From a virus, in IMG/VR virus record IMGVR_UViG_3300021964_000018, positions 77,039-141,038 of that record: a stretch of 64,000 nucleotides of DNA. One strand, written 5' to 3'. The notes under the pieces were generated by a model that was not told where the DNA came from, did no database searches, and worked only from the letters and a program-made list of their open reading frames with translations. Made by a program: the position numbers and the translations under genes. This document shows, piece after piece, positions 27,405-31,034 of this stretch; within the stretch, counting starts at the first letter, position 1, and each line of letters opens with the position of its first letter.

Positions 27405-29024
27405 ATGGAAATCAAAAGAGAAGTAATTTTTAAAGATAGTTTTGAAAGTAAAATAAAAAAAGGAATTGACACACTTTCAAATGCAGTTAAAACAACAATG
27501 GGGCCTAAAGGAAAATTAGTTCTTATTCAGAGAGAAGGACAACACCCAATCGTAACAAAAGATGGCGTAACAGTTGCTAATTCTATCAATCTAGTGGATG
27601 AAGTAGAAAATTTAGGCGTTAAAGTTTTAAAAGAAGCAGCATCTAGAACTGCTGATGAAGCGGGTGACGGAACAACTACCTCAACTGTTTTAGCACAAGC
27701 CATTTTTAACGAAGGCTTAAAAATGAAGTCTGCAGGATTTCAAATTGATTTAATTAAAAGAGGTATTGATTCTTCACTTAAATTAATTAAAGATTATTTA
27801 CTTGAAGCAAAAAAAGATGTAACGAGTAATGAAGAATTAAAGCAAGTTGCAATGATATCTGCAAACGGTGAAGAAGAAATTGCTAATCTTATTGTCGACG
27901 CAATTCAGGCAGCTGGACCTGATGGGTCAGTCATTGTTGAAGAAGCAAAAGGATTTAAATCAGAGCTTAATGTTGTTGATGGTTTTCGATTAGAGCGCGG
28001 ATATTTGTCGCCTTATTTTGTAACAGATAAAAATAAAATGACATGTGAATTTGAACGCCCTTTAATCCTAATTGCCGACAGAGAATTCAATACAATACAC
28101 GACCTTATGAAACCATTGGAAACGGCTTTGGATTCATCCAGGCCTATTCTGATCATCGGAAATGATATCCAAGGTGATGCTCTTCAAGGAATGGTATTAA
28201 ATAAAGTAAAAGGATCGTTGCGGGTTTGTGCAATTAAGTCTCCGGGTTTTGGCGGGTCTAGACATGATATGTTGGTAGATTTGCAGTCAGTTATAGGAGG
28301 TGAAGTAATTACATCTTCGTTTAATATGAGCGAATTTAAAATGGAGCATTTTGGAACGTGTGAAAAATGTATTATTCATAAAAACATGACAATGATTATT
28401 TCAAAAGACACGAAGCAAAAAAATAAAAAGATTGAGGAACGAATCGATTCAATTCGAAGCCGCCTGCTAGAAAGATATTCATTGCAAGATGGTGAAGAAA
28501 ACATTTTAAAGTATCGTTTACAACAATTGTCGGGAGGTATTGCAATATTACGAGTTGGAGCTGCTACAGAATCTGAATTGATTGAGAGGTATGATCGTGT
28601 TGATGACGCATTGCATGCAACGAGGGCAGCTTTGCAAGAAGGAATCTTACCAGGTGGAGGAGTTGCATTAGCAAGAAGTTCAAAAAAGCTTAAGGAATTA
28701 TCGACAACAATTGATAATCCTGATATAAAAGCTGGAGTTGAAATAATGTTAAGAGCTGTTACGTCGCCTTTTAAGCAAATCATAAAAAATGGCAATAAGT
28801 CAGATCAAACGTTATTAGATGCTGTGATTGAAAAAGATAATAATACAGGTTATGATTCTAGAAATAATAAGTTTGGTGATATGTATTCTTTGGGAATTGT
28901 GGATCCACATAAAGTTGTTAGATGTGCAATTGAAAATGCAACGTCTGCAGCAACAATGTTGTTGAGTGTTGAATGTTGTCTTATAAGTTTGAAACAAGAA
29001 AATTCAGAAGATAATTATAATTAA
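27405..29024 (+). CDS. groEL: Group I chaperonin GroEL (divergent, no GGM tail)
   Basis: TMGPKG, TKDGVTVA, GDGTTT, RGYLSPYF, GGGVAL. Confidence 0.95.
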   Translation: MEIKREVIFKDSFESKIKKGIDTLSNAVKTTMGPKGKLVLIQREGQHPIVTKDGVTVANSINLVDEVENLGVKVLKEAASRTADEAGDGTTTSTVLAQAIFNEGLKMKSAGFQIDLIKRGIDSSLKLIKDYLLEAKKDVTSNEELKQVAMISANGEEEIANLIVDAIQAAGPDGSVIVEEAKGFKSELNVVDGFRLERGYLSPYFVTDKNKMTCEFERPLILIADREFNTIHDLMKPLETALDSSRPILIIGNDIQGDALQGMVLNKVKGSLRVCAIKSPGFGGSRHDMLVDLQSVIGGEVITSSFNMSEFKMEHFGTCEKCIIHKNMTMIISKDTKQKNKKIEERIDSIRSRLLERYSLQDGEENILKYRLQQLSGGIAILRVGAATESELIERYDRVDDALHATRAALQEGILPGGGVALARSSKKLKELSTTIDNPDIKAGVEIMLRAVTSPFKQIIKNGNKSDQTLLDAVIEKDNNTGYDSRNNKFGDMYSLGIVDPHKVVRCAIENATSAATMLLSVECCLISLKQENSEDNYN

Positions 29025-29048
29025 ACATTATATTGTCGGAGATGCAAC

Positions 29049-29432
29049 ATGAGCAATAAAAAAGTTATATTAAAAGAATTAGATAAAATAGAGATGATTG
29101 CTGAATCTTTATATAAAATGGATAGAAAATTATCTTCAACTACATTAACTTTAAAATTAGAAAGAGATACTCATGTTCCAGATTTAATGACACGTATTAG
29201 AATATTACCGGGTGTAGCTGTAGTTGCACAAAAAGATAAGGTTGCTAGATTTTTTGATGGTGATGCACAGTTAATGATAAATATTAAATTTTTGCCAAAA
29301 TCTAATGCAATTTTAAAATCAATTAAACATTTAGCGAAAATGATTCGCAATTTACCAGGAGTTAAGTCGATAGCAGTTGAAACGTATGATAAAAGAAAAA
29401 TATCAATGCACGGAAAAAAATTAATTTTATAA
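29049..29432 (+). CDS. Hypothetical protein
   Basis: ORF track; SD GGAG. Confidence 0.65.
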   Translation: MSNKKVILKELDKIEMIAESLYKMDRKLSSTTLTLKLERDTHVPDLMTRIRILPGVAVVAQKDKVARFFDGDAQLMINIKFLPKSNAILKSIKHLAKMIRNLPGVKSIAVETYDKRKISMHGKKLIL

Positions 29433-29433
29433 T

Positions 29434-29646
29434 GTGAGGTGTTTTATGGAAAAACAAAACAATATTATTCCAAATAAAGAATTAACATATAACGAGCTGA
29501 TGTCATTATCAGAAGATCAATTAAGAGAATTATTTCTTTTAACTCGATCAAAAATCATTACCGGTCAAAAGTTTAAAAAAGATACTACAGAAATTGAAAT
29601 TTATAATTGCTATATTACTAAAGCAATTGAAGATAAAGCCAGATAA
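29434..29646 (+). CDS. Hypothetical protein
   Basis: ORF track; true start probably the ATG following SD GAGG. Confidence 0.55.
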   Translation: MRCFMEKQNNIIPNKELTYNELMSLSEDQLRELFLLTRSKIITGQKFKKDTTEIEIYNCYITKAIEDKAR

Positions 29647-29671: not shown

Positions 29672-29700
29672 AAGCTAACTTGTGTAAGTTAGCTTTTTTT
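29672..29700 (+). terminator. Terminator hairpin overlapping the sigma promoter -35
   Basis: AAGCTAACTT-gtgt-AAGTTAGCTT plus T run. Confidence 0.7.
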
Positions 29701-29710
29701 ATGTTATAAT
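29683..29710 (+). promoter_or_regulatory. TGTAAG-N16-TATAAT promoter of sigma gene
   Basis: Motif and spacing. Confidence 0.65.
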
Positions 29711-29737
29711 AATATTGTAAAAACCAAAGGAGAAAAA

Positions 29738-30484
29738 TTGAGTTATAATACAGCAATTAATAATTATTTTAAAAGTATAAGAAACATTCCTTTACTTACA
29801 AAACAACAAGAAATAGAGCTCGCAAAAAAGATTGAGCAAGGAGACATAAAAGCAAAAAAGAAAATGGTTGAATCAAACTTAAGGCTAGCAATATCAGTTG
29901 CTAAAAAATATGCCAAATACGGATCTAGTTTAGAAGATTTAATTCAAGAATCCAATATTGGTTTAATTAAGGCAGTTGAAAAGTTTGATTGGCGGAAAGG
30001 TTATAAATTTTCAACATATGCAACTTGGTGGATTAAACAAGCAGCAACACGTCATTTAACAGCAAATAATACTTTATTAAAAGTTCCATCTCATACAATT
30101 GCAAATGCAAGTAAAGTTTGGAAACTGATTCAGTCTTATCAAGAAGAATTTAATACAGAGCCTACAATTGAAGAAATTTCCGAGATTCTTAACATACCAG
30201 AAAAACACGTTAAGCAGGCAATTGAATCTTTAAAAACGCGTCATTTAAAATCAATCGACAAACCTGTTAGTGATGAAAACAACAGGACTTTAGGAGATAT
30301 TCTTCCAGATAATGCACCAAGCATTGAAACATTAATGGATCAAGAAATTATCAGACAACAAATAGTTACTGCATTTAAATCTTTATCTAAACGAGAAGAA
30401 ATTGTTTTAAGATTAAGATTTGGAATAACTGATATTGATACTAATAATAATGAAATACATGAAATTAATAACGAGGAGGAATAA
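29738..30484 (+). CDS. RpoD-like sigma-70 factor, regions 1.2-4.1 (lacks 4.2 HTH)
   Basis: [61 protein letters not shown] then stop. Confidence 0.9.
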
Positions 30485-30487
30485 GAT

Positions 30488-30796
30488 ATGTCAATGCCAA
30501 AAGGATATAAAAAAGAAACAGGTTATGGAACAACAAAAGCATTAGGAGGTTTATCTTATCATGCAATTGCTAATGAAATGAATGAAAGAAACTATAAAAT
30601 GAACCATTCGACTGCAAGAAATTTATTTGTAAACGCATTGATGAAAATCGCAGAAAACATATGTAATGTTTATAATCAAAAGTTTGATCAAGAAAAAATT
30701 AAAAAGATTGCAATCGATCCAAGATTTCAAGAATCAGTTGCAGAATACATGAGAGAAATTGAATATGAAGCTGAATCACGAGATACTAATAAATAA
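30488..30796 (+). CDS. Sigma region 4.2-like HTH protein
   Basis: LSYHAIANEM...NHSTARNLFVNALMKI resembles TLEEIG...TRERIRQIE.KAL.KL; own SD GAGGAGG. Confidence 0.6.
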   Translation: MSMPKGYKKETGYGTTKALGGLSYHAIANEMNERNYKMNHSTARNLFVNALMKIAENICNVYNQKFDQEKIKKIAIDPRFQESVAEYMREIEYEAESRDTNK

Positions 30797-31034
30797 TATT
30801 GCCAAAGAAACAGAACTTTTAGAGTCATTAGAATGGGATTATGAAGTTTTAGATGAATTATATAAATATTTAGATATTCACTTTTCAGGTGATAGTATTA
30901 TTACACCTGATTTAATTCTTCAAGAAGTCAAAGAAAAGTTTGGTGAAGAGTGCGAAAAAGTTTTACGTAAATTATTTGTTGAGGTATCTATAACAAATGG
31001 ATTACACATATATGACCCAGACATTGAAAATTAA
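30759..31034 (+). CDS. Hypothetical protein
   Basis: ORF track. Confidence 0.6.
   Translation: MNMKLNHEILINNIAKETELLESLEWDYEVLDELYKYLDIHFSGDSIITPDLILQEVKEKFGEECEKVLRKLFVEVSITNGLHIYDPDIEN

Follow-up and report, generated by a model that had tools for sequence, protein, structure and literature searches.

The 64,000-nt stretch of DNA analysed here, which we call the window, is the last 64 kb of the 141-kb virus record IMGVR_UViG_3300021964_000018 in IMG/VR (positions 77,039 to 141,038 of the record). The record has a G+C content of 30-36% and a CheckV completeness of ~54%, and its source is a large uncultured marine phage. Our subject is a pair of adjacent genes in the window: open reading frame 1 (ORF1), which encodes an RpoD-like sigma factor that ends before region 4.2, and ORF2, which encodes a small partner protein. 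We propose that the two products probably make up one sigma factor, split inside its domain 4. The genes and their parts are as follows.

29728..29732, + strand: ribosome-binding site of ORF1, AGGAG
29738..30484, + strand: ORF1, RpoD-like sigma of 248 aa with a TTG start and regions 1.2, 2, 3 and 4.1
30473..30479, + strand: Shine-Dalgarno sequence (SD) of ORF2, GAGGAGG, within the end of ORF1 and 8 nt before the ORF2 start
30482..30484, + strand: ORF1 stop TAA, followed by GAT and then by the ORF2 ATG at 30488
30488..30796, + strand: ORF2, partner protein of 102 aa, belonging to a family of ~100-aa proteins
30557..30670, + strand: ORF2 residues 24-61, two helices predicted to take the place of the sigma 4.2 helix-turn-helix (HTH)
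30671..30793, + strand: ORF2 residues 62-102, two more helices with a near-invariant IAxDPRFQ motif

ORF1 matches the Pfam models for region 2 (PF04542, E 3.3e-22, 78.5 bits against a cut-off of 24), region 1.2 (PF00140, 44.4 bits) and region 3 (PF04539, 37.8 bits), each over its cut-off, and it also matches PHROG 351. Additionally, it keeps the canonical region 2.3/2.4 motif and the REE-VLRLRFG motif of region 4.1. No 4.2 HTH was found in ORF1 with Pfam, and the sole match to PF04545 (region 4) is the region-3 HTH at residues 139-161, leaving region 4 incomplete. The C-terminus consists of region 4.1, then 18 mostly acidic residues after RFGI, then TAA. The best 120 ORF1 homologues are all 212-280 aa long, mostly 240-256 aa, and the best matches in GenBank phages (tblastn) are at most 42% identical.

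ORF2 shares the reading frame of ORF1, with only TAA-GAT between them. Its N-terminus is near-invariant (M-x-M-P-K-G-x-K...G-Y), its sequence includes LSYHAIANEM..NHSTARNLFVNALMKI, and a conserved MNHSTARN marks the start of the second helix within residues 24-61. A preliminary description of this DNA had reported that the RpoD-like ORF stops soon after region 4.1 and that the next ORF follows in the same frame through TAA-GAT-ATG with its own SD, and our coordinates and sequences agree with it on both points.

The short tail of ORF1 past region 4.1 is conserved in the clade of the window as D-x-N-(I/F)-(Y/P)-(E/I)-(I/T). More distant relatives (L054-L093) have a longer sigma tail past RFG, with a conserved D-H-x-N-F-P-I-T-x-x-E...L that ends near a Gly. 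This tail is a longer helix, and its FPIT..E...L segment has the look of a relic of the HTH's first helix; the window clade (tail at 30428-30481) retains only N-(I/V)-Y-E-(I/V) of it.

The gene pair is conserved among related phages

Homologues of ORF2 are numerous and stand alone. A search found 248 at E <= 1e-3, all told proteins of ~100 aa, and the 120 listed among them are 89-104 aa long, share 55-97% identity with ORF2 and come from marine metagenomes such as Tara. With a profile of the family, 309 clusters (at 50% identity) were found among 1.84 billion cluster representatives, almost all of 85-135 aa. A tblastn search returned no ORF2 homologue in GenBank phages. Contigs that carry ORF2 homologues have the gene order GroEL, two small ORFs, a 240-250-aa sigma, ORF2 and, later, a CTP-transferase-like gene; one contig with the GroEL-sigma-ORF2 order is a 261-kb Tara scaffold.

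To follow the pair, we used an ORF1 alignment to collect 80 IMG/VR loci with ORF1 relatives at 38-65% identity, on contigs of up to 318 kb. An ORF2-family gene lies directly downstream of a truncated sigma in 79 of the 80. A locus search of IMG/VR with ORF2 alone gave no confirmed locus. Distant ORF2 members (33-39% identity) likewise follow sigmas that end shortly past RFG(L/I). The exception, L091 (1995-2807), is a 270-aa sigma with a canonical 4.2 HTH (TLEDVGSDFGITRERARQLE; TLEDVGSDFGITRERARQLEKQAL) and no ORF2, in a different and smaller genomic context, and it is the only ORF1-related IMG/VR locus without ORF2. This one case fits a complementary occurrence (n = 1), in which a sigma is either truncated and accompanied by ORF2 or full-length and without it.

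These loci bear on whether ORF1 might work by itself as a truncated sigma, for example competing with the host sigma or serving promoters with only a -10 element, with ORF2 an unrelated neighbour. Sigma70 fragments without region 4.2 can use extended -10 promoters, so that a lone ORF1 is conceivable. However, the two genes are adjacent and translationally coupled throughout the 79 loci, distant clades included, and the only full-length sigma locus found is the one that has no ORF2. We therefore consider a lone ORF1 very improbable.

Several observations concern the surroundings of the pair. Upstream of the sigma operon, at 27405-29646, the window carries a 539-aa phage GroEL followed by small ORFs of 127 and 70 aa, an order also kept in Tara and GenBank metagenome contigs. 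Downstream, a 91-aa ORF at 30759-31034 overlaps the end of ORF2 by 38 nt and has no family match. Some relatives have an ORF of 83-101 aa here: in L002, L005 and L012 it overlaps or directly adjoins the end of the ORF2 homologue, and in L009 and L010 it starts 5-20 nt past that end. This ORF may be a third member of the operon. In the latter two relatives, the truncated sigma and the ORF2 homologue are separated by a hydrophobic, membrane-associated-looking ORF of 102-106 aa (L009:2193-2501, L010:2200-2520). Finally, one 118-aa predicted protein (P0360, L094:130-486) joins an N-terminus of RNA polymerase omega (Rpb6/RpoZ) to an ORF2-like C-terminus; it lies on a 622-bp Tara scaffold and is possibly a chimeric assembly.

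ORF1 and ORF2 are two coupled genes

Because only TAA-GAT separates the two frames in the window, ORF1 and ORF2 could in principle be one gene, either interrupted by an assembly error or expressed as a fused full-length sigma through programmed stop read-through or frameshifting. The junctions of the relatives speak against this. Among 67 distinct junctions, which stem from many independent assemblies, ORF2 lies in frame 0, +1 or +2 with respect to ORF1 in 14, 18 and 35 cases, and a stop codon stands between the genes in all 67 (TAA 42, TGA 21, TAG 4). The spacers vary between -23 and +38 nt, the genes overlap in 29 of the 67 (ATGA, TAATG and similar), and at one junction another ORF intervenes. 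In every case ORF2 has a start codon of its own, and in the window also its own SD.

This pattern of frames, stops, spacers and overlaps is characteristic of two translationally coupled cistrons. In-frame junctions make up 21%, below the chance expectation, and this rarity argues against conserved read-through or frameshifting. Moreover, no sigma-ORF2 fusion occurs among the best 150 of the 309 ORF2 family clusters or among the best 120 ORF1 homologues. The preliminary description had suggested that the split be looked for in related phages and had named an assembly error as the finding that would overturn it; the same truncated sigma with ORF2 recurs in 79 of 80 loci. It had also raised read-through to a fused form, an idea that does not survive the variation in frame, spacer and stop codon. 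Assembly error and read-through are effectively excluded, and we give next to no credence to the idea of a single gene.

A predicted composite sigma-4 domain

If ORF2 supplies what ORF1 lacks, the two should be able to fold as one domain. We built a composite AlphaFold2 model in which ORF1 residues 190-248 run on into ORF2 across the natural junction, with the TAA read as Q. The alignment had 146 rows, of which 13 were naturally in-frame pairs and the rest unpaired fragments. The model has a predicted local distance difference test score (pLDDT) of 81 and a predicted template-modelling score of 0.71. Confidence is good for the two 4.1 helices and for every helix of ORF2, with a disordered stretch of 45 residues in between. 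ORF2 helices 24-33 and 40-61, together with the 4.1 helices of ORF1, complete a sigma-4/LuxR-type domain in the model, which thus has the four predicted helices of sigma-4 with the HTH formed by helices 3 and 4.

An exhaustive VIA-align comparison of the composite with 48,161 PDB chains returned a top 50 made up nearly entirely of sigma-4 or LuxR/GerE-type HTH domains. Among the sigma-4 matches were AlgU (8z6g_B; Z 8.3, root-mean-square deviation (rmsd) 2.0 Å, 77 aa), WhiG (7lq4_A; Z 7.9, rmsd 1.3 Å, 70 aa), region 4 of sigmaE on -35 DNA (2h27_D; Z 7.8, rmsd 1.6 Å over all 69 residues) and region 4 of SigC (Z 6.8, rmsd 1.4 Å over all 61 residues). The aligned range of the model, ~1-125, covers both polypeptides. 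Foldseek likewise ranks sigma-4 and LuxR families first for the composite, with template-modelling scores by target of 0.79-0.82 (1ku7, 2h27), but with E of at least 0.17.

In an independent test, we also co-folded ORF1 190-248 with ORF2. The interface score (ipSAE) came to 0.49, while the best of three controls scored 0.00; the runs agreed in at least 80% of contacts, with a partner pLDDT of at least 65. Of 80 solved complexes, 58 reached the mark used for this score, as did 2 of 110 mismatched pairs; among the pairs that reached it, only 7 of the solved complexes, but both mismatches, scored 0.60 or below, the range into which this pair falls. Co-folding thus lends weak support to a predicted contact between ORF1 and ORF2. 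The two pieces are compatible with a composite sigma-4 domain, whose formation is a prediction of these models.

Modelled alone, ORF2 has a pLDDT of 78, a disordered N-terminus and helices at 24-33, 40-61, 68-75 and 78-100; no beta strand of three or more residues is predicted in this model or in the composite. We had considered that the NIYEI tail of ORF1 might pair as a strand with the GYxT of ORF2, and this is unsupported, as both segments are disordered in the composite model. The ORF1 tail, the ORF2 N-terminus and the ORF2 helices with IAxDPRFQ may contact the beta-flap, the DNA or each other.

A promoter family with a conserved -35 box

Directly upstream of ORF1 lie the following elements.

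29672..29695, + strand: terminator-like hairpin after the upstream gene, a 10-bp stem and then a T run; its loop and 3' arm hold the -35-like box
29683..29688, + strand: -35-like box TGTAAG (GTGTAA at 29682-29687), which is not TTGACA
29702..29710, + strand: -10 element TATAAT (29705-29710) with an upstream TG (TGTTATAAT), 16 nt from the -35-like box

This promoter-like site, TGTAAG-N16-TATAAT at 29683-29710, belongs to an enriched family, in line with the TGTAAA-type promoter that the preliminary description had placed before the gene. Over the whole 141-kb record, we counted 17 copies of the pattern TG[TC]A[AC]N-N15-17-TA[TA]AAT on the + strand and one on the - strand, where 3.3 +/- 1.7 are expected per strand, and the spacing is exactly 16 nt at 14 of the 17 sites. 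Members of the family lie in the window at 844, 2913, 7347, 10918, 26298, 29683, 31776, 40201, 40626, 53263 and 59973, with five more upstream of the window, and several are intergenic, 12-35 nt ahead of gene starts. The enrichment belongs to the spaced two-box pattern only: plain TTGTAAA and TGNTATAAT occur in the window at chance level.

Relatives carry a related box ahead of their sigma gene. Among 71 distinct relatives, 40 have (C)GTG(C/T)AA followed 17-20 nt on by TAnAAT, whereas shuffled sequences gave the box at 2.4 loci, with a maximum of 9. The relatives with this box span very different G+C contents, G+C-rich ones included. In several relatives (for example L014-L020 and L026), the same box lies in a hairpin loop whose arms differ in sequence yet still pair. 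At 29672-29695 and in these relatives, either a terminator and a promoter overlap or the hairpin is itself regulatory.

A -10 element that matches the RpoD consensus, next to a -35-like box that is not TTGACA, fits the canonical region 2.4 of ORF1, and a -35 box conserved at fixed spacing, both across the genome and among relatives, implies a -35 reader. The assembled ORF1-ORF2 factor would be that reader, acting on the promoter family and on the promoter of its own operon.

ORF2 might instead be a partner that does not read DNA. It would then bind the beta-flap and/or cap region 4.1, as T4 gp33 does with gp55, or act as a chaperone or anti-sigma, and the promoters would be recognised through their -10 or extended -10 elements only. 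Known phage split sigmas do have a flap-binding subunit without sequence-specific DNA binding, and the operon's own promoter contains TGnTATAAT. This last element is not enriched, however, with 5 sites in the window against 6.7 expected, and a non-reading partner leaves the -35 box, kept at its spacing in the genome and in relatives, without explanation. The most conserved stretch of ORF2, MNHSTARN, is also the start of the recognition helix in the composite model. We regard a partner that does not read DNA as improbable.

ORF1 and ORF2 as a probable two-subunit sigma factor

Our best reading is that ORF1 and ORF2 are translationally coupled genes that jointly make one sigma factor, split inside domain 4; we put its probability at roughly 0.6, with binding and DNA reading as predictions. 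ORF1 would bind the core, recognise the -10 element through regions 1.2, 2 and 3, and provide the two scaffold helices of domain 4 (region 4.1). ORF2 would supply in trans the HTH that normally follows region 4.1, packing on the 4.1 helices and completing the sigma-4 domain with a divergent recognition helix, (M)NHSTARN in place of (V)TRERIRQ. On the host RNA polymerase core, the assembled factor would read phage promoters of the form GTG(T/C)AA-N16/17-TATAAT, including that of its own operon. This reading fits the conservation of the pair, the exceptional locus L091, the match of the composite model to whole sigma-4 domains and the conserved -35 box that is not TTGACA.

A number of results weigh against it. 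By sequence statistics, ORF2 has no significant similarity to region 4.2. The ORF2 of the window has no Pfam match; PDB sequences searched with a profile of its family yielded designed repeat proteins and noise but no sigma; and hhalign, run against an RpoD sigma-4 profile built from 119 full-length RpoD-type sigmas, gave a non-significant probability of 0.24%. Modelled alone, ORF2 fits the N-terminal ribbon-helix-helix (RHH) of TraM best (Z 5.3, rmsd 2.2 Å, 47 aa), with weaker and mixed matches to C-terminal halves of sigma-4 (Z 3.6-4.6), LysR HTH domains (Z 4-4.6) and antitoxins, and Foldseek gave it no match with E below 2.8. Only 13 of the alignment rows behind the composite fold were paired, the fold may partly reflect AlphaFold's memory of sigma-4, a Z near 8 is not decisive for helical domains, and the model leaves unstructured and unexplained both the ORF2 N-terminus (MxMPKGxK..GY) and the conserved ORF1 tail. 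On the promoter side, covariation of the -35 box variant with the ORF2 recognition helix gave no clean signal and is confounded by clade, and it is equally possible that a host sigma reads the TGTAAA-type promoters.

Sequence comparisons below significance point toward sigma-4. The single hhalign segment, although not significant, sits at the expected place (ARNLFVNALMKIA on IRQIEAKALRKLR), with R44-N45 of ORF2 on R588-Q589 of sigma70 and R-E-R replaced by H-S-T. Sigma70_r4_2 is matched by more ORF2 family members than any other Pfam family, yet by only 6 of 112, weakly and with a best E of 0.0056. In the ESM Atlas, the ten closest named clusters consist entirely of small viral Sigma70_r4 proteins, at scores of 0.81-0.87 that lie below the trustworthy level. 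PHROGs offered one unannotated family (E 0.0037) and nothing usable.

Three claims of the preliminary description hold in part. It had matched the second ORF to the missing HTH, which is true of the composite model, as it fits sigma-4, but is backed neither by a significant sequence match nor by a clear fold match for ORF2 alone. Its remark that ORF2 lacks RERxRQ stands for R-E-R and not for the final R-N pair, which aligns with R588-Q589 in that one hhalign segment. Its two-subunit sigma with a separate -35 reader gains from the conservation of the pair, L091, the composite fold and the -35 box, and finds no backing in sequence homology or in the fold of ORF2 alone, while binding is predicted.

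The same results bear on another explanation, that ORF2 is an independent DNA-binding factor, of RHH or small HTH type, which acts as a co-activator near -35 as T4 MotA does and forms no composite domain 4. The TraM match, joined by several RHH antitoxins, suits such a factor, as do LysR-type HTH domains that align over ORF2 residues 18-102, the lack of a significant sequence link between ORF2 and region 4, and a strongly conserved N-terminal segment that could be an RHH strand or a DNA arm. However, the -35 box consists of one asymmetric 6-7-mer whose spacing is fixed at 16 nt, with no palindrome or repeat of the kind that RHH dimers usually need. The composite also fits whole sigma-4 domains (Z 7.8-8.3, rmsd 1.3-2.0 Å) better than ORF2 alone fits anything, and the 4.1 helices of ORF1, being exposed, would call for a partner. 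An independent factor is, in our judgement, unlikely while still deserving serious attention.

Returning to the two-subunit sigma, we would offer about even odds on a fuller statement: that a widespread lineage of large marine phages carries its -35-reading helix on a separate, co-translated 100-aa subunit, which completes domain 4 in trans and defines the code GTG(T/C)AA-N16-TATAAT. The candidate promoters that accompany the pair open it to a direct test by in vitro transcription, with either protein or with both.

Comparison with known systems

Domain 4 of sigma factors is regarded as one unit of folding and recognition. A conserved natural division between its regions 4.1 and 4.2, if true, would mean that the -35 reader can be a detachable subunit, and would be the first case of a sigma that nature has split inside a domain. 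The supply of the small subunit could then serve to control promoter specificity or timing. The pair would add a new architecture to the few two-subunit sigmas and give a function to several hundred unannotated phage proteins, and it could provide an orthogonal, two-input transcription switch.

Known two-subunit sigmas include T4 gp55/gp33, SPO1 gp33/gp34, B. subtilis SigO-RsoA, Tn916 Sig7-Sig8 and possibly Francisella MtvS1/MtvS2. ORF1 and ORF2 resemble them in being adjacent, co-oriented genes that are inherited together and encode two small proteins thought to supply the promoter recognition of one sigma on a host core; several of the known systems also come from phages or mobile elements. 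The known split sigmas all part domain 2 from domain 4, so that each protein holds one of the two, and in T4 gp33 and the Tn916 system the flap-binding subunit has no sequence-specific DNA binding (10.64898/2026.10.01.756105; PMC13627669). In the phage pair, by contrast, the break falls after region 4.1, inside domain 4, so that ORF1 retains everything from region 1.2 to region 4.1 and the separate part is limited to the 4.2 HTH and a 40-residue extension. No sequence relation of ORF2 to RsoA, gp33 or Sig8 turned up, and no direct comparison was made. Searches of the literature turned up no split within sigma region 4.

Single-chain proteins offer further parallels. ORF1 is like RpoD, RpoS and phage RpoD-like sigmas in its regions 1.2, 2 and 3 and in its region 2.3/2.4 and 4.1 motifs, and unlike them in having no 4.2 HTH. 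Group 2 jumbo phages have RpoD-like sigmas, "minimal" sigmas with a single HTH, and gp33 orthologues, according to the portions of Iyer et al. (2021, PMC7824862) considered here, and those portions make no mention of an RpoD without 4.2 that is paired with a separate HTH. ORF2 shares its small size and stand-alone nature with these minimal sigmas and with the viral Sigma70_r4 proteins of the ESM Atlas, which have 65-130 aa and a sigma-4-type HTH, and small viral Sigma70_r4 proteins are its nearest neighbours by language-model features. In those portions of the source and in the Atlas, however, such proteins have a recognisable signature and a whole HTH domain as described, whereas ORF2 falls below the Pfam threshold and is predicted to be half of domain 4; unlike the minimal sigmas described there, it is paired with a sigma that lacks exactly that half.

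The composite also aligns with the tetrahelical HTH of the LuxR/GerE type (NarL, FixJ and StyR; Z 6.6-8.7), including one extra C-terminal helix of ORF2. LuxR/GerE domains are single chains borne on receiver or ligand-binding domains and have no sequence relation to the pair, whereas here the N-terminal half is unambiguously sigma 4.1. Although ORF2 is not demonstrably a member of Sigma70_r4 by sequence, we conclude that the ORF1-ORF2 pair probably acts like a two-subunit sigma, but one that breaks at a different place.

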